Assembly: GCA_018816815.1 (NCBI GenBank)
Contig: JAHIVD010000019.1
Location: 1 to 40,028 of the forward strand
Origin: Patescibacteria group bacterium
GTDB taxonomy: Bacteria; Patescibacteriota; Microgenomatia; Daviesbacterales; UBA10151
Length of the DNA stretch: 40,028 nt
Direction of reading: 5' to 3'
In this document: in pieces, positions 906 through 26,324 of the stretch
Layout: the number at the start of each line of letters is the position of its first letter
How positions within the stretch are numbered: position 1 is the stretch's first letter
Notes under the pieces: generated by a model
The model's input: the letters and a program-made list of their open reading frames with translations, nothing else
Database searches by the model: none
What the model was told of the DNA's origin: nothing
Program-made: the position numbers and the translations under genes

Positions 906-3134
906 TTATATTATATTGAGTTCATCCATTTCTCCCCAATTTTTCCCTATTTTAAGATCAACTACTACTGGCACAGACAGTTTAAGAGCATTTTCCATCT
1001 TAGCTTTCACCATTCTTGCTACTTCATTAACATACTTAGTGTCGCATTCAAAAAGCAGCTCATCGTGAACTTGAAGGATCATAGAGCATGACCCCTTTAT
1101 CGCAGATCGTTCGTTGTTCGTTGGTTTTTTTCCTTTACTCTGAACTAATCCCTTATTAATTTCCACCATCGCCTTTTTAATCATATCAGCTGCTGAGCCC
1201 TGAACAGGCATATTAACAGCAGCCCGTTCTCCTGCTGAGGAAATCATTCTATTGCTGGCTTTTAATTCCGGAATATACCTTCTCCTGCCCCAAAGTGTTT
1301 CAACATAACCTTTCTCATGGCCAAAAGCTAGTATTTTTTGCATCCAATTTTTCACTTCAGGAAACTGCTCAAAATACTCAGCTATATATTGCCGGGCTAC
1401 GCTGTATTCTACTCCCAGCTGACGGGACAGTGCATGCGGACCCTGACCATAAAGCATAGCAAAATTCATAGTCTTACCTACCATTCGCTGTTTTTTTGTG
1501 ATTTGCCCAACAGGAACTTTAAATATCTTAGCTGCAGTAGCCGCATGAATGTCTAATCCTTCATTAAAAGCTTTTTTTAAACCCGGGTCATCTGCCAAAT
1601 GTGCCATTATCCTAAGCTCAATTTGGGAATAATCAGCTCCCAGTAGAATTTTCCCTTTCGGAGCAACAAACGCACGTCTTATCTCTCCTCCCAACGAACC
1701 TTTAACCGGAATATTTTGCAAATTAGGATCTTTTGAAGAAAGTCTTCCTGTAGCAGCTCCCTCTACATTAAAAGTAGAATGGATCCTGCCATTATTTTCA
1801 ACAAACTTTGGCAGACTATCTATATAAGTTGAAACTAGTTTAAATAGTTGTCTGTATTGGAGCAGAAGCGGCACAACAGGATGAGCGGGAGATAGTTCTT
1901 GCAAAGTCTTTTCATCTGTTGAACGCCCGGTTTTAGTTTTTCTAATAACAGGCAGTTTTAGTTCATCAAAAAGCACTTGTGATAACTGCTTTGGACTGTT
2001 CAGATTTAACTGATGTCCTACTTTTGAGTAAATATCTTCTTCTAGCTTGGCTAATTTGCCTTTTAGTTCCTTACCAAACTTATCTAAAAACTTAAGATCA
2101 ATAAGCATGCCTGTTTCTGTCATTTTCCTTAGAACTAGTACAACTTTCGCATCCAATCTGGCAGCTAAATTTGAAGTTCTCTGGTGTGGTAAGTTAACAG
2201 AATCTTTTAATAGGTTAGATTTACTAATCGAGCGTTTTTTTGTGTTCTGACGAACTGTTCCCTGAATGACGCCTGGTAATCTGACAATTAAACTTTTAAA
2301 CTCCAACTCCTCGAACAACTTCACTACTTCTTCTTTATCAAAATCCTGCATCACACAGGCCGGAAGATTTAATTTAATAGGTGCTTTCAGATCTAACGTA
2401 GCTAATTTCTTACTCATCACAGCAGATTCTGCGCCTTCTGACAACAGTTTTTGTATTCTTTTTGGAAGGGTTTTTAAATTCTCAGGTTTATAAATTTCTT
2501 CAATACAGCCAAATTGGTGAATCAATTTAGTAGCTGTTACATCTCCAACTCCAGCAACGCCCGGAATATTATCTGATGAATCTCCTGCCAAACCTTTGTA
2601 ATCAGTAAGCTGTTTAGGGAAAAACCCGTATTTAACTACAAACTCCTCTACTCCGTAGAGTCCCACATCAGAAAGAGTCTTTTTAGGCATAAATACTTTA
2701 ATGTTTTTATCAATAAGCTGCGTAATATCTTTATCTCCGGTTACAATAATAATTTCCAAATCTTTTTCTTTTTGTGCCTGCAAAGCTAAAGTTCCAATCA
2801 AATCATCTGCTTCGTAACCTGAAACTTTAAATTCCGGAATATTAAAAGCCAAGGACACCTCATGAACTCTTTTATATTGACCGGATAAACCCTCATCAGT
2901 TGGCCCACGCGTTGCTTTGTATTGAGTATATGCTTGGTGCCTGAATGTTGGTCCTTTTTCATCCCAAGCGATAGCTAAGTATTCAGGATGCAGTTTATCA
3001 AGCACTTTTAAAACCATCGAGGAAAAGCCGTAAACAGCATTTACCAATTCCCCTTTTGAAGTAGTAAAAGGCGGAGTAGCATGATAAGCTCGGTGAAGCA
3101 AAGCATTACCATCAACTAAAACCAAGCGTTTCAT
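906..3134 (-). CDS. polA: DNA polymerase I: 5' nuclease domain plus family A polymerase domain, with no 3'-5' exonuclease domain
   Basis: The N-terminus (MKRLVLVDGNALLHRAYHA, GYEADDLIG) is a FEN-like 5' nuclease. Pol A motifs are present: DYSQIELR, KTMNFAMLYG, QVHDELLFE. Only about 50 aa link the two domains. Confidence 0.95.
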   Translation of the reverse strand: MKRLVLVDGNALLHRAYHATPPFTTSKGELVNAVYGFSSMVLKVLDKLHPEYLAIAWDEKGPTFRHQAYTQYKATRGPTDEGLSGQYKRVHEVSLAFNIPEFKVSGYEADDLIGTLALQAQKEKDLEIIIVTGDKDITQLIDKNIKVFMPKKTLSDVGLYGVEEFVVKYGFFPKQLTDYKGLAGDSSDNIPGVAGVGDVTATKLIHQFGCIEEIYKPENLKTLPKRIQKLLSEGAESAVMSKKLATLDLKAPIKLNLPACVMQDFDKEEVVKLFEELEFKSLIVRLPGVIQGTVRQNTKKRSISKSNLLKDSVNLPHQRTSNLAARLDAKVVLVLRKMTETGMLIDLKFLDKFGKELKGKLAKLEEDIYSKVGHQLNLNSPKQLSQVLFDELKLPVIRKTKTGRSTDEKTLQELSPAHPVVPLLLQYRQLFKLVSTYIDSLPKFVENNGRIHSTFNVEGAATGRLSSKDPNLQNIPVKGSLGGEIRRAFVAPKGKILLGADYSQIELRIMAHLADDPGLKKAFNEGLDIHAATAAKIFKVPVGQITKKQRMVGKTMNFAMLYGQGPHALSRQLGVEYSVARQYIAEYFEQFPEVKNWMQKILAFGHEKGYVETLWGRRRYIPELKASNRMISSAGERAAVNMPVQGSAADMIKKAMVEINKGLVQSKGKKPTNNERSAIKGSCSMILQVHDELLFECDTKYVNEVARMVKAKMENALKLSVPVVVDLKIGKNWGEMDELNII

Positions 3135-3152
3135 GACTAAATTCTAACATAA

Positions 3153-4163
3153 TCACCTAAAAAGAGTCTCTGCGTACTGCAAATATTCGGGATAGCCACT
3201 GTAGGCCATGAAATACCACCACTCCACGCCCCACAAGTATATCTCATCAAAACCCGTCTTCCTTGCATAATCCAGATAGGATTTCATTTTATCCGACGGG
3301 AATTGTTTTAATTGTTTGTTTAAATTTCGGGTCAAATCCCCGCCTGACAACCACGGTTCTGCCTGCAACTCTACAATGATTGTTTTCTGATTATTAGGGG
3401 CGAAAATTCTCACTATTTGGGATTTTATATTATAGAGATAAGGCAGGAATGGGAAGCTAAAATAACCAATCACCGGATTATAAACAGTCCGGTAAAGGGT
3501 GGTCCCGAAAACATCAGAAGTTTGCATTGGTACAATCCAAGCCCCCGGTTCTCCCGCATCAGAAACAATAATCGTCTTATTGCTTAAACTTTTGACTAGA
3601 TTAATTTCTGTTTTCAAGAATTTTTCATCTCCCGGATCACAATTTTCACCAAAAAATGGTAAAAATGGCTCATTTTCTACTTGCCAGGCCCAAACCGCAG
3701 GATGATCCTTATATTTTTCGACGGTTCTTTGAATAAATTCCAAAAGCCTTTGCTGTCTATCTTGTAGCTTTAAACTTTTTGCCCAAGTAGGAATTTGGCA
3801 TTCGGGCCAACGGGGCTGCTTTTCACCTAAAACCAAGATTACTTTTGCTCCACTCCTACCTGCTTCATCCAGCATAAAATCTACCTCCGAGAAATCATAT
3901 TTACCCTGATCTTTCTCTACAACATCCCAATAACCAGGCACTCTCAAATTCCGAACCTCAAGTTCATCCAGTATCCTAACATAGGTCTTTTTCCAATCTA
4001 GCTTCAAGGAACTGGCGTATCCCGGAGAAAAAGTTACCCCATATTCAATTTTTGAGGGGAATTGATAAGTTGAATTAAAAACAAATTCTCCCAAAAAAAT
4101 CAAAATAATGAAAGAAAAAATTAAGACAATCAGAGTCTTTAAGGCAGATCTAAATTTAGTCAT
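3153..4163 (-). CDS. Membrane-anchored glycoside hydrolase, clan GH-A TIM-barrel type (family uncertain)
   Basis: N-terminal TM helix. WQVENEPF resembles the NEP acid/base motif and VELQAEPW is a candidate nucleophile strand. Confidence 0.5.
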   Translation of the reverse strand: MTKFRSALKTLIVLIFSFIILIFLGEFVFNSTYQFPSKIEYGVTFSPGYASSLKLDWKKTYVRILDELEVRNLRVPGYWDVVEKDQGKYDFSEVDFMLDEAGRSGAKVILVLGEKQPRWPECQIPTWAKSLKLQDRQQRLLEFIQRTVEKYKDHPAVWAWQVENEPFLPFFGENCDPGDEKFLKTEINLVKSLSNKTIIVSDAGEPGAWIVPMQTSDVFGTTLYRTVYNPVIGYFSFPFLPYLYNIKSQIVRIFAPNNQKTIIVELQAEPWLSGGDLTRNLNKQLKQFPSDKMKSYLDYARKTGFDEIYLWGVEWWYFMAYSGYPEYLQYAETLFR

Positions 4164-4193
4164 ATAACTACTATAGCTTTTTTACCCTGAAGA

Positions 4194-5306
4194 TTAAATA
4201 CTTTTTGGTCTTTTTAACCGGTCAAAAATTCCAGAAATTATGTGCGCTACAGCTTTATGCCTATAATCAACAATACCTCCATGATCCGCATGTCTGGTGC
4301 CAACTAAAAATACCACATTCTCAGCTTTAGACAACAAAGTTTGTTTTAGGTATTGCTGCCTGGCTCTGGTTAAACTTGCCATCTCTTTTCTGCTTTGATA
4401 GGCCTTCTTATGCCTCTCAATATAATTTTCCCTAGTACCATACTTAGTCTTCCGCTTTTCATCCATCCCATCCCATTTTCTACCTATCTCATCAATTAAT
4501 TCTTCTTCTGTCTGAGGAGGCTGCATACTTTCAACTTCAGACTGAGGAAGATATTTTCTTAGATCAGAAACTAAATCCCTATCTGTTACCATTATCACTA
4601 CCGGAGCTTTAATCTCCGCCAGATAAGGATTAATATTTACTAAATTTTTCATTTGATTTAGCAACATCTTTGGATATCTAACCCCGGCAAAAGCAATATC
4701 TCTTAAAAGACTCTGCACGAATTGCGTCTTTAAGCCTTTTGGGTTATCAACTCCTGCTTTCTCACGTTCTTGACCACTGACCCCAAATACATCAAAAAGA
4801 AAATCTTTTACTAACTGCACCCTGCTTCTTTTATCCATACCCATGGGATTTAATAAAACAACACCATTAACTCCTATACCAGGACATTGTTCCTGGAGAA
4901 TAACAGCCAAATCAACAGCTCTGATTGCACCTTCCGAGTGACCAACTATTGTAACTCCGTTAAGGCCTTGTTCTCCTAGAAATTCGGCTATTCCTGCTGA
5001 TTCCAAACGCAAAGAATCTGGTCCAAACTCTCTGACTCTGGTATAAATACTAAATGTTTTTGCCCCAGTCCCCTCAGCAAGGCTTTGTGGTAAAGGGTAT
5101 GTAATTGGTTTATCAGCTTTCCATGGCCAACCGGGTAAAAATATCACTGCTTTAGCAGGATCAAATTTCTCTCTTTCTTCATCAGTAAAACGAGGAGGTG
5201 TAAATTCCGTACAAAATACGCTCACTGTGTGCCCGTCAACAAGTATATCCTGCGTTAAAGGCGAAGGCTTAATTTCTACAGGTGACCCCCCTTCAACACT
5301 TTCCAT
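4194..5306 (-). CDS. Alpha/beta hydrolase fold protein
   Basis: GHSEGA matches the GxSxG nucleophile elbow in an alpha/beta-like context. The basic C-terminal region of about 100 aa is unassigned. Confidence 0.55.
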   Translation of the reverse strand: MESVEGGSPVEIKPSPLTQDILVDGHTVSVFCTEFTPPRFTDEEREKFDPAKAVIFLPGWPWKADKPITYPLPQSLAEGTGAKTFSIYTRVREFGPDSLRLESAGIAEFLGEQGLNGVTIVGHSEGAIRAVDLAVILQEQCPGIGVNGVVLLNPMGMDKRSRVQLVKDFLFDVFGVSGQEREKAGVDNPKGLKTQFVQSLLRDIAFAGVRYPKMLLNQMKNLVNINPYLAEIKAPVVIMVTDRDLVSDLRKYLPQSEVESMQPPQTEEELIDEIGRKWDGMDEKRKTKYGTRENYIERHKKAYQSRKEMASLTRARQQYLKQTLLSKAENVVFLVGTRHADHGGIVDYRHKAVAHIISGIFDRLKRPKSI

Positions 5307-10336: not shown

Positions 10337-13300
10337 CTAAACGCTCTTTTTCTTCCCGACGATCTTCTCAAACTCATCCCCTTCCAGGGTTTCTTTTTCT
10401 AAAAGTGCTTTAGCAACAGCGTCCAGCTTGACTCTGTGTTTTCTTAAGATATCCTGAGCCGCCTTAAAACAACTATCTGTGATTTTTCTGACTTCGCAGT
10501 CAACTGCATTGTGCAGTTTTGGCGAAAGATCTACCCCTTCTTTCATTCCCCTCCAGATCCCAAACACTGGTCTGGGATTAACATTAATTGGACCTAAACT
10601 GGACATACCATACTCTGTCACCATGTGTCTGGCTATGTTTGTTGCTATTTCAATATCAGATGCTGCACCTGTTGAAATGTCTTTGAATGTCAGCTCCTCT
10701 GCTGCTTGTCCGCCCAAAGCAGCTGTAATCTGTTCTAATAGCCTGGACTTGCTTTCATTAGACCGGTCCTGTGTTGGAGGAAAAAGGGTGTGTCCGCCGG
10801 ATAAACCCCTGGAAATAATCGAAATCCGGTGAAGCGGATCAACTTTTTTAAGAAAATGTCCGACAATTGCATGACCTGCCTCATGATAGGCTGCCAGGTT
10901 TCTATCTTGCTCTGACTGCATCCTTTTCCGCTGTGGTCCTAATTTTTCCTTTGTAGCAGCCTCTTCCAAATCGTGATTATCAATAGCAGTTTTATCCTCT
11001 CTTGCTGCCAAAATTGCTGCTTCATTTAGCATGTTTGCCAAATCAGCACCGGAAAACCCAACAGTTCGTCTGGCTAACTTTCCCGGATCAACATTTTTGG
11101 TAAAAGGCTTACCCTTCATATGCAGTTCAATAATAGCTTTCCGCTCCTGCAGGTCAGGCATACTTACAACAACACGTCTATCAAACCTGCCTGGCCTTAT
11201 AAGTGCTGCATCCAAGAGATCAGGGCGGTTGGTAGCTGCGAGAATTATGACCCGTTCATTAGGAGTAAACCCATCCATTTCTACCAATATCTGGTTTAAA
11301 GTTTGCTCTCTTTCGTCGTGGCCTCCGGAAAATCCCATACCGCGCTGGCGGCCGATTGATTCAATTTCGTCAATAAAAATAATAGACGGAGAATTTTTCT
11401 TAGCTTGTGCAAACATATCACGAACCCTACTATTATGAAGCAGGACTGGTTTTTCTCCTCCAAAAAAAGCCTCATTTTCTACTCCACATAAATCATAAAC
11501 AAAACCATGATACTTTTTCTTAGTAACCTTTTTAACAATTGCTCTTTTAAATTGATTAGGATATTTTGCCTGAGGCAAAAATGGATTAGAAGTTTTACCG
11601 ATAATCAGTGTCCAAAATTCACCATCCGGCAATGGTCTATCCAAAATAATCCTTCCGCCTTTGATCCTTTCATGTTTAATACCTACTTTAATACCATGCA
11701 TTGAACAAAGCCATGCCAATTCTTTGATAAGTTGATGGCTGACTGAAGACATACAGAGTTTACCTGATTTGGTAATATAACCATCACCCCTGGAATAACC
11801 TTCCAGGAAAGCCAGAAAGTACTTTTTGGGTAACAGCCATAAAATCTCCGGTATATGCTTATTATGAGAACCATTACCGCAGAATCTAGCAAAAAACCTG
11901 CCTAAATGGTGAGAATAATAGTTAATTTTTACGCTGTGATCTTTTCTTTCTAAAACTACAGGTTTCACACCAAAAACATCCTCCATTAAATCAATACAAT
12001 CCCCGTAAACTGCTGGTTCGTGTGAACCAAAGGTGAATTCTAAACTACCAGTACCCCTACCTTCAGCAGTGTAAAACCCGAACAATTTCATCAGTTTGCA
12101 GGTTACTGATACTTGATCCGGCAGATTAAGTTTAACTAGCTTCTTTGAAAGGACTTGTGGAAAATGCACGCCTTTTTGCCAATTTAGGACTGTAGTTTGA
12201 CAAACCCCTGTTTCTGAAGCTAACCGGTAAGAGGACGATTTATCTGGATTTTGTAATACAAACTGATGCAAATACTGAATGCTTTCATCGTCTTCCCAGA
12301 AATCTAGAGTAATTTTAGAAGTTTCTTCAAATAAATGAGTTTTTATTCTATGAATGGTTTTTTTAACTACATCATCCCAGTGTTTTACATTTAACGGTAA
12401 CTCTACTAATAAATCTCCTTTTTTAAGTTCGCTTGCTTTTTTAGGCATAATCCCACCATGAGTTCTGACAAAAACAGAATGATCACCTGTTGTTTGTAGT
12501 TTACCCCCTAAATATTCAATATGATAAATTTCCGGAACTTTATGTCTGTAAACTGCTTCTACATCTTTCCAGGCGCTTGATTTAAACACTAATTGCTTAC
12601 CTTTGGTGCCCCGGAAACCATTTTGTTCTTTATCAAAACCTAAAGTTTGAATTCCCTCTGTTTTTTTAACTACACTGTGTTCATTTCCTGTGTAGAACCG
12701 ATCCACAAAATCTTTTATAGGAATTAATCCTATACCATCTTTGTCTTTAATTAAAATAGGTGTATCTCCTGTTACAGAAGCACCTACGCCTACTAACATT
12801 TCCATAAATTCAGATCCTGCTATAGAGTAAAAGGGTACGCCAGCCTCCCCTGCCACGGCTCGTGAAATTAAAGTTTTTCCGGTTCCAGCAGGGCCTACCA
12901 ATAACACCCCTTTGGGAATTCTGGCACCTAAGGCTTTAAATTTTTCCGGAGTTTTTAGAAATTCCACTATCTCAGACAGTTCTTTTTTGGCCTCCTCAGC
13001 TCCTGCCACATCTGTAAATTTGATCTGAGGAGCATCTTTGGAAAAAAGTTTGGCTTTACTTTGGGCAAAAGAAAAAACACCCTGTCCTGCATCACGGGCA
13101 TTCTTAAATAAAAAAACCATTAAACCTACCAGAATCAATATTGGCAAAACCGCAGATAAAATCCCGATCCAGGCTTGCTGAACAGATAAGTCCTTTATTT
13201 CAATAGTAACGGATTTTGGATCAACACCACTTGACTCGAAAATCTTATATATTGACTCACCCTCCTCCTTATGAGAAGTAAGCTTCTTGTCTGAATCTTT

Positions 13301-13552
13301 TACTTCTGCTGTTACCTTATCCCCTTCTATAGAGATTTTTGTCAATTTGTTGTCTTTAACATCAGAAACAATCTGAGAAATTGGCACTTCACTGCTATCA
13401 TCAGTTTTAGGCCCGCCGGAAACCTGATAAAAGAAAATAAGTGCAGCCAAAGCAATTAAGGTATAAACAGCTAAGCCTTTAAAAACTGCTAAAAGCTTTT
13501 TCTTATTTAAGAATTTTTTATTAAAACCGACTCTCTTTCTGCTGTTTGCCAT
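10337..13552 (-). CDS. ftsH: ATP-dependent zinc metalloprotease FtsH, interrupted by an intein
   Basis: TM helices, Walker A (GPAGTGKT), Walker B (IIFIDEIE), second region of homology (PGRFDR) and the HEAGH zinc site are all present. The ORF is 1071 aa; 622 aa remain after removing the insert. Confidence 0.95.
11432..12778 (-). mobile_element. Intein (449 codons) with a LAGLIDADG homing-endonuclease domain
   Basis: It starts with Ser259 (SVTGDTPIL) and has TGDH as a block B candidate. LAGLIDADG-like motifs are [11 protein letters not shown] and [12 protein letters not shown]. It ends VLLHN (Asn707) before Ser708. Joining the exteins restores GVGA|SRVRD. Confidence 0.88.
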
Positions 13553-23096: not shown

Positions 23097-23214
23097 ATTT
23101 ATGTTTCTGTCCTTCGATCTTTCCTATTCCGCACACTAGCACAAGACAAACTATAGTGAGGACCCATTTACAGTACTATTTTATGAATCCCGCATCAAGT
23201 GCAGATAGCGCTTG

Positions 23215-23288
23215 TAGCAGGGGTGGGGATCGAACCCACGACCTCTTCGTTATGATTGAAGCGCTCTAACCAACTGAGCTACCCTGCC
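23215..23288 (-). tRNA. tRNA with anticodon CAU (elongator Met or Ile2; not distinguishable here), no encoded CCA
   Basis: Hand-folded cloverleaf: GGCAGGG/CCCUGCU acceptor (G1-U72), GCUC/GAGC D stem, loop AUCAUAA, GUGGG/CCCAC T stem with UUCGAUC loop. Positions 31-39 form an A-C mismatch. Confidence 0.85.
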
Positions 23289-26239: not shown

Positions 26240-26251
26240 AAATCAATTATG

Positions 26252-26324
26252 TAGGCTCGGCTGGACTTGAACCAGCAACCTATTCTGTATAAGAGAAGCG
26301 CTCTGCCAATTGAGCTACGAGCCT
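26252..26324 (-). tRNA. tRNA-Ile with anticodon UAU
   Basis: Hand-folded cloverleaf: AGGCUCG/CGAGCCU acceptor, U8 A9, GCUC/GAGC D stem, anticodon loop CUUAUAC, GCUGG/CCAGC T stem with UUCAAGU loop, 5-nt variable loop. Positions 27-43 form a C-U mismatch. Confidence 0.8.

Follow-up and report, generated by a model that had tools for sequence, protein, structure and literature searches.

The 40,028-nt stretch of DNA analysed here (the window; contig JAHIVD010000019.1 of the Patescibacteria group bacterium assembly GCA_018816815.1, an uncultured, Daviesbacteria-like genome) encodes on its minus strand the AAA+ membrane protease FtsH, as a 1071-aa precursor that is interrupted at aa 259–707 by a 449-aa insert with the features of an intein. 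Its sequence and predicted fold place the insert among the class 1 inteins, with oxygen nucleophiles (Ser1 and Ser+1) predicted to act at both junctions, and we consider it very probable that it splices and that the homing endonuclease it encodes is active or was so until recently. A sequence-only reading of this DNA had proposed such a class 1 element at 11432..12778 without naming the strand; translation confirmed the open reading frame (ORF), the position and the length, and Pfam, NCBIfam, AlphaFold2 (AF2) and Foldseek bore out the class.

The host gene is a regular FtsH on either side of the insert. The precursor scores 702.9 bits on the NCBIfam profile TIGR01241 (FtsH_fam, curated cut-off 600), and Pfam recovers FtsH_ext, AAA in two pieces, AAA_lid_3 and Peptidase_M41, matching a membrane anchor of two hydrophobic segments, a classic AAA module and an M41 peptidase with its HEXXH site (HEAGH). 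Walker A, Walker B, the second region of homology (SRH) and HEAGH are all intact in the exteins. When joined, the exteins yield the motif GVGASRVRD and a 622-aa FtsH, as had been proposed; residues 113–618 of this chain align to Thermotoga maritima FtsH (7tdo, 531 bits) and residues 25–618 to Escherichia coli FtsH (7vhp, 508 bits), colinear and gap-free at the junction in both cases, and in the comparison with orthologues suggested by the earlier reading the intein-less protein P0097 is 85% identical over 100% of the query. The frame is unbroken over 1071 codons and across both intein junctions. Precise excision would leave an ordinary FtsH, with the reconstructed empty site reading TTTATGGAAATGTTAGTAGGCGTAGGTGCT/AGTAGGGTTCGTGATATGTTTGCACAAGCT.

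Geometrically, the junction A258/S259 of the joined protein corresponds to A230/S231 of the 644-residue E. coli chain, and the insertion point lies five residues past the pore-loop-1 position F225 of that chain (F228 in the numbering of the older literature), where the helix SRVRDMF begins. With its ATPase core interrupted between pore-loop 1 and this helix, FtsH should need splicing to become active. Pore-loop 1 itself carries a separate peculiarity: the aromatic residue of the E. coli and T. maritima proteins (Phe, in MFVG) is Leu253 here (MLVG; codon 12794..12796, minus strand), and Leu occupies this position in 116 of the 116 readable sequences among 119 listed close FtsH relatives, intein-bearing or not, a lineage-wide change in the substrate-gripping loop that is independent of the intein.

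Both functional parts of the insert are recognised by profile searches. Pfam Intein_splicing (PF14890) scores 43.9 bits (E 2.8e-11, cut-off 35.8), NCBIfam intein_Nterm 25.8 bits (cut-off 24.5) and Pfam LAGLIDADG_3 (PF14528) 30.4 bits (E 4.8e-7, cut-off 22.5), so the Hint and LAGLIDADG domains for which the earlier reading had advised a search are present above the curated thresholds. Archaeal intein-containing NCBIfam models (Tes, RpoA'', PolC, IF-2 and RNR) match through their inteins, and in protein searches homologues of the intein reach E 1e-216. The insert opens with SVTGDTPIL and finishes with VLLHN, and its splicing residues are Ser1, T97-G-D-H100 in block B, D429 in block F and H448-N449 in block G, followed by Ser+1; the initial Ser, the TGDH at aa 97–100, the two LAGLIDADG motifs, the VLLHN end and the +1 Ser are all where they had been reported.

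The predicted structure agrees with these assignments. An AF2 model of the intein, built on an alignment 38 sequences deep, has a mean predicted local distance difference test score (pLDDT) of 90.1 and a predicted template modelling score (pTM) of 0.87, and when it was compared with the Protein Data Bank (PDB) by Foldseek, the top matches were all inteins that contain a homing endonuclease (HEN): TliVMA (E 1e-22, TMt 0.79), PI-PkoII, PhoVMA, PI-PfuI and PI-SceI. Mini-inteins match the Hint lobes (Mvu TFIIB, TMt 0.60; Pho RadA, 0.56), and in a sequence search of the PDB the N-terminal Hint lobe finds the Mja and Mvu TFIIB mini-inteins, while the best solved sequence relative of the whole is PI-PkoII (E 1.1e-14), in an alignment that takes in the two LAGLIDADG motifs as well as the VYDL...HN at the C-terminus. 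Bacterial intein-like (BIL) and Hedgehog-type Hint domains, which lack the +1 nucleophile or the canonical HN end and occur in variable, poorly conserved regions of proteins, were considered and rejected, given the HN end, the Ser+1 and the location within a motif that is invariant in the AAA module; 2lwy, a BIL structure, is a marginal fold match (E 1e-3). Between the N-terminal Hint lobe and the endonuclease lies the linker in which a helix-turn-helix-like segment had been suspected. The model contains three helices there (165–176, 183–190 and 194–202), which may form a helix-turn-helix; a Pfam scan of aa 159–225 alone gave HTH_Tnp_1_2 below threshold (E 0.047), which is weak support. Conservation within the intein is lowest in this linker (aa 161–222). 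In base composition the intein is richer in AT than the exteins, with a third-position GC content (GC3) of 0.254 against 0.318 and 0.378.

Table 1 Features of the ftsH locus in the window
Feature	Position	Strand	Evidence
ftsH precursor ORF, 1071 aa + stop (N-extein + intein + C-extein)	10337..13552	minus	ORF list, TIGR01241, Pfam
N-extein, aa 1–258; two hydrophobic segments, pore-loop 1 EMLVGVGA	12779..13552	minus	translation, alignment to 7tdo and 7vhp
Walker A GPAGTGKT (N-extein)	12872..12895	minus	translation
Predicted intein, 449 aa, precursor aa 259–707	11432..12778	minus	Pfam, PI-PkoII match, AF2, Foldseek
Hint N-terminal lobe, intein aa 1–160	12299..12778	minus	coordinates; match to Mja/Mvu TFIIB mini-inteins
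Block A in Hint N-lobe (Ser1)	12743..12778	minus	coordinates
Block B in Hint N-lobe (T97, H100)	12467..12505	minus	coordinates
Helical linker, possible helix-turn-helix, intein aa 161–222	12113..12298	minus	AF2 model helices
LAGLIDADG homing endonuclease domain, intein aa 223–395	11594..12112	minus	Pfam, PI-PkoII alignment, Foldseek
LAGLIDADG motif 1, intein aa 229–241, FGFYTAEG, E239	12056..12094	minus	PI-PkoII alignment
Conserved Lys K307	within 11843..11881	minus	conservation among inteins at this site
LAGLIDADG motif 2, intein aa 321–334, D332	11777..11818	minus	PI-PkoII alignment
Hint C-terminal lobe, intein aa 396–449	11432..11593	minus	coordinates
C-terminal blocks in Hint C-lobe (D429, H448, N449)	11432..11512	minus	coordinates
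C-extein, aa 708–1071 + stop; first residue is the +1 nucleophile Ser708	10337..11431	minus	translation, FtsH alignment
Ser708 (+1) codon	11429..11431	minus	translation
Walker B IIFIDEIE (C-extein)	11360..11383	minus	translation
Sensor-1 / SRH (C-extein)	11177..11236	minus	motif position
Zinc site HEAGH (C-extein)	10871..10885	minus	motif position

The central domain is predicted to be a monomeric, two-motif LAGLIDADG endonuclease nested in the intein. The secondary structure of the model repeats the pattern alpha-beta-beta-alpha-beta-beta-alpha twice over aa 227–393, and Foldseek aligns the domain with I-DmoI (TMt 0.61–0.64) and I-Tsp061I (0.56). A genome scan, made with one genome per species, found a relative in 253 species-representative genomes, and we drew details from the best 80 matches, all of full length, 79 of which have an intein at this same FtsH site. 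Among the resulting 80 inteins (those of 79 other genomes and the window's own, at loci picked by similarity to the full-length query), S1, H100, D429, H448 and N449 are each present in 80 of 80 and T97 in 79, with Ser in the remaining one; E239 and D332, which end the two LAGLIDADG helices, and K307 are also found in all 80, and the endonuclease domain as a whole is as conserved as the Hint lobes. The earlier impression of an intact endonuclease domain is thus upheld. We relied on residue invariance across the 80 genomes instead of the ratio of non-synonymous to synonymous substitution rates (dN/dS), since synonymous sites are saturated, the closest intein homologue having 72% protein identity. 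The joint conservation of endonuclease and Hint residues argues, subject to this choice of loci by similarity, for selection on both activities.

Taken together with textbook class 1 splicing, from which we see no departure in mechanism, these features suggest the following course. The 1071-aa precursor would be translated and inserted into the membrane while the intein folds in the cytosol; T97 and H100 would help Ser1 through an N-O acyl shift, Ser+1 would attack the ester in a trans-esterification, and Asn449 would cyclise with the help of H448 and D429, releasing the intein, after which an O-N shift would leave the peptide bond ...GVGA-SRVRD... of a 622-aa FtsH. The freed 449-aa protein would then cut intein-less ftsH at the DNA encoding GVGA/SRVRD, and repair of the double-strand break would copy the intein into the cut allele. 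Homing of this kind would account both for the patchy occurrence of the intein in close relatives and for its distribution over several phyla.

That the insert is instead a dead, non-splicing remnant, and this ftsH a pseudogene or inactive paralogue, we regard as very improbable. A second ftsH copy might exist outside the 40 kb of the window, and one related locus (L028, discussed below) is frameshifted, but the 1071-codon frame here is uninterrupted, every splicing residue is in place, the Walker A, Walker B, SRH and HEAGH motifs of the exteins are preserved, and intein-less orthologues with the same gene order share 85% identity with the exteins. An assembly chimera, in which an unrelated intein-bearing fragment was joined into ftsH, is scarcely credible. 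We found no support for it, the lower GC of the insert being equally expected of a mobile element, and the protein occurs in identical form on a second, independent assembly (ENA ERZ27247128). Both junctions recur in dozens of metagenome proteins and, with the frame kept, in 79 other assemblies; agreement between about 80 independent genome assemblies excludes a chimera.

A split intein or fractured gene was also rejected, the window having a single 1071-codon frame and tblastn having found single-frame, colinear precursors at 79 related loci. The exception is L028 (CAZRXL010000035.1), where the coding sequence of FtsH and intein runs through three reading frames, either because the copy is decaying or through assembly frameshifts. 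Apparent 'half genes' that start inside the intein came from the fragment-only list of a word-seeded protein search with the intein alone, in which all listed proteins measure at most 784 aa and the 1071-aa self-match is absent; full-length precursors were obtained with an extein query and from the genome scan. In the ten largest other ORFs of the window, a Pfam scan found no further intein.

Next, we compared the site across 117 close FtsH relatives from Candidatus Daviesbacteria (74–85% identity). It is empty in 114, and the three occupied cases are the window, P0197 (full length, with 72% intein identity) and P0172, whose intein is a mini-intein of 183 aa. Mini-inteins of 195 aa (P0035) and 212 aa (P0060) occupy the same site; all three retain a Hint sequence like that of the window, the endonuclease deletions break off inside such window-like sequence, and what is missing is precisely the helical linker together with the endonuclease. 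The best intein-less orthologue, L002, shares the TrpRS-ftsH gene order of the window and, judged from its accession, appears to come from the same ENA study. This coexistence of empty, full and mini alleles is what would be expected of a homing cycle.

The +1 position differs between these alleles. It is Ala (GVGA-A-RVRD) in 99 of the 114 intein-less close relatives and Ser (GVGA-S-RVRD) in the other 15, and L002 is itself an Ala+1 allele (ftsH 3001-4845, …GGTGCAGCCCGCGTTCGT…), while in intein bearers it is always Ser within this clade and Thr in one distant genome. Either only Ser alleles could be productively invaded, the Ala alleles being immune, or the Ser could be co-converted together with the intein.

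Beyond this clade, the best 80 matches of the genome scan cover at least eight phyla (Patescibacteria, Acidobacteriota, Actinomycetota, Gemmatimonadota, Eisenbacteria, Chloroflexota, Planctomycetota and Verrucomicrobiota), and include a cultured bearer, Glycomyces arizonensis DSM 44726 (L052, NZ_KI519474.1). A separate observation concerns the labels in this set: many metagenome-assembled genomes (MAGs) filed as 'uncultured Gammaproteobacteria bacterium' (TPA binchicken/SRP; L005–L010, L012, L013, L017, L018, L022 and others) have an FtsH of the Microgenomates type with MLVG and 55–62% extein identity to the window, and their taxonomic labels look wrong.

Several observations weigh against this reading of a splicing, homing intein. 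Across 69 genomes the identities of intein and C-extein to the window are correlated (r = 0.88), and the intein is conserved about as well as FtsH. Long vertical co-inheritance explains this no less well than frequent recent homing does; co-inheritance broken by episodes of loss, or transfer chiefly between relatives, would fit too, and the correlation by itself is no proof of recent homing. Most nearby empty alleles, being Ala+1, could not support splicing without co-conversion, whether or not they can be cleaved. Block F reads NEAFF instead of HNF and so lacks the frequent His at F:13, a weak objection because PI-PkoII has the same NENF variant in the alignment. A 40-kb window cannot reveal any second, intein-free ftsH in the genome, and it is from anatomy, residues, fold, colinearity and distribution that we infer splicing, DNA cleavage and homing.

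The first two of these points, along with the lack of any close intein relative in 50,697 phage records that might indicate a vector (the search returned distant LAGLIDADG matches with at most 32% identity over a third of the query), would also suit an intein that splices while its endonuclease no longer serves homing, having been kept for the folding or stability of the intein or domesticated, with inheritance now vertical only. We consider this unlikely. E239, D332 and K307 do not vary in 80 inteins drawn from at least eight phyla, within an endonuclease conserved like the Hint lobes, whereas endonucleases that do decay are deleted, as in the mini-inteins, or mutated at catalytic residues, as in Coemansia spiralis; and an element borne by 3 of 117 close relatives is patchily distributed.

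Co-option by the host is a further alternative, in which splicing would be conditional on redox state, temperature, salt or substrate and would act as a post-translational switch of FtsH. Conditional splicing is documented for the ATPase-domain inteins of RadA and DnaB (PMC4513877, PMC6195587), the intein is as conserved as an essential extein across phyla, and its position adjoins the substrate-translocating pore loop. We nevertheless judge a switch quite improbable: no sequence feature demands it, Ser1 and Ser+1 make Cys-based redox traps unavailable at the splice junctions, and 114 of 117 close relatives manage without the intein. A splicing intein with a present or recently active homing endonuclease thus remains our preferred reading.

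FtsH hosts inteins at more than this site. We found at least four, all in conserved AAA motifs: Walker A (GTGK/C...HN/T), the position after pore-loop 1 described here, Walker B (HN/C-I-[IV]-F-[IV]-DEID) and sensor-1 (AA/S...HN/TNRPD). The Walker A inteins form an unrelated Cys1 lineage that is common in Daviesbacteria. Some FtsH genes contain two inteins (L011, L013, L026, L038, L057, L074 and P0010), and a 1963-aa ORF of a Blastocatellia MAG (L031, JAKEHD010000528.1) contains three.

In both FtsH and archaeal Cdc48, the sensor-1 inteins are 40–45% identical to that of the window, with the same SVTGDTP start and an FFGGE.P.LLHN end, and therefore one lineage appears to have jumped between non-allelic sites; the sensor-1 site lies about 65 residues downstream in the AAA fold, differs in having Thr+1 where the window has Ser+1, and is uninterrupted in the window's FtsH (ILAATNRPD). 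Inteins of the same lineage (28–45% identity, with SVTGDTP and FFGG..P.LLHN ends) also reside in unrelated nucleotide-binding proteins, namely archaeal Cdc48-like proteins (P0016, P0049, P0053, P0071), GTPase-SIS proteins (P0042, P0074), an adenylosuccinate synthetase (P0066) and a secretion ATPase (P0072), and RFC is among the hosts of more distant relatives; this distribution suggests repeated ectopic jumps.

AAA proteins of the fungus Coemansia (P0056, P0059, P0063, P0076, P0085) carry a homologous intein at the exact FtsH site, SEFDEIYVGVGA/SVTGDT...LLHN/SKVR, in exteins that best match the i-AAA protease YME1, and in C. spiralis the endonuclease has lost its catalytic residues. Unless the fungal assemblies are contaminated, this would appear to be a nuclear intein of a eukaryote that has not been described before, perhaps of bacterial origin. 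Whether the related inteins (FtsH after pore-loop 1, FtsH and Cdc48 sensor-1, nuclear YME1 of Coemansia) and the unrelated Walker A and Walker B inteins together mark FtsH as a four-site hot spot in which a single gene can hold as many as three inteins, and as a host system not described in the literature that we could search, we hold to be evenly balanced.

Among characterised inteins, a close counterpart is PI-PkoII (the Pol-2 intein of Thermococcus kodakarensis DNA polymerase, 2cw7), the best solved relative by sequence and the third by fold (E 1e-21), for which cleavage has been demonstrated experimentally. It shares the Hint and two-motif LAGLIDADG layout, the NENF-type block F and the terminal HN, with motifs worded LLGYYVSEG and FLEGYFIGDG where motif 1 of the FtsH intein reads FGFYTAEG; it differs in being archaeal, in its family-B DNA polymerase host, in its length of 537 aa with extra domains, and in an identity of about 18% over the structural alignment. 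TliVMA and PhoVMA (7qsu, 7qss, 7qst), PI-PfuI (1dq3) and PI-SceI (1vde), the top fold matches (E 1e-22 to 1e-10, TMt at most 0.79), are likewise HEN-associated and sit in a P-loop ATPase or nucleotide enzyme, but their hosts are the V-ATPase A subunit and ribonucleotide reductase, their sites are others, identity is 12–17% and they begin with Cys1, not Ser1.

Two further comparisons are by host. The Walker A inteins of Daviesbacteria FtsH (P0104, P0160, P0177, P0190, P0206, P0210) share the gene, the lineage, a LAGLIDADG domain and a similar size of about 420 aa, and differ by Cys1, Thr+1, the classical P-loop site and the lack of any similarity to the window intein detectable in our searches. 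Archaeal LonB inteins, like that of FtsH, lie within the ATPase module of an AAA+ membrane protease, but of another protease family and domain of life, and our searches showed no sequence relationship to the window intein.

In a 2016 survey, inteins as a rule sit in conserved motifs of P-loop ATPases, their hosts are dominated by replication and repair proteins, archaeal LonB is among the top 15 archaeal hosts with 10 inteins, and FtsH is absent from the top 15 bacterial hosts (PMC4760082). Cdc48 inteins are mentioned elsewhere (PMC10710043). Our full-text literature searches turned up no description of an intein in FtsH or Yme1, a low-count entry in the supplementary tables of the 2016 survey being possible, and co-mentions of FtsH and inteins proved coincidental, as with phage MIJ3, which has an FtsH-like gene and a separate PolB intein. 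The intein-bearing sequences are themselves already public, with Pfam domains assigned automatically; the NCBI record of the identical protein is titled 'AAA family ATPase [Patescibacteria group bacterium]'. The sequence-only reading was therefore right that FtsH is missing from the classical host lists, but the rarity it implied was overstated, given dozens of species in at least eight phyla and three further sites.

The remainder of the window is ordinary chromosome, with genes for PolA, TrpRS-type and class II aminoacyl-tRNA synthetases, a P-type ATPase and PurT. The Pfam scan of the ten largest other ORFs gave no match to a 3'-5' exonuclease domain in PolA. A tRNA-Ile with anticodon TAT (UAU) lies at 26251..26324 on the minus strand, with an adjoining tRNA-Met at 23214..23288.

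FtsH is usually the sole membrane-anchored AAA+ protease of a cell and is often essential, and here its maturation should depend on splicing beside the substrate-translocating pore loop. What the intein adds is a type of host, a proteostasis enzyme, and not a new kind of system. Its Ser1/Ser+1, cysteine-free splice junctions, in an intein of a mesophilic bacterium, may interest protein engineers, and such genes deserve care in annotation, as they are often named only 'AAA family ATPase' or split by gene callers. The family-level picture is a more interesting angle than the single intein: four sites, relatives across sites and domains of life, and full, mini and empty alleles offer, in compact natural form, the material for studying homing cycles and site jumping, and Glycomyces arizonensis would provide a cultured model for asking whether splicing gates an essential membrane protease.

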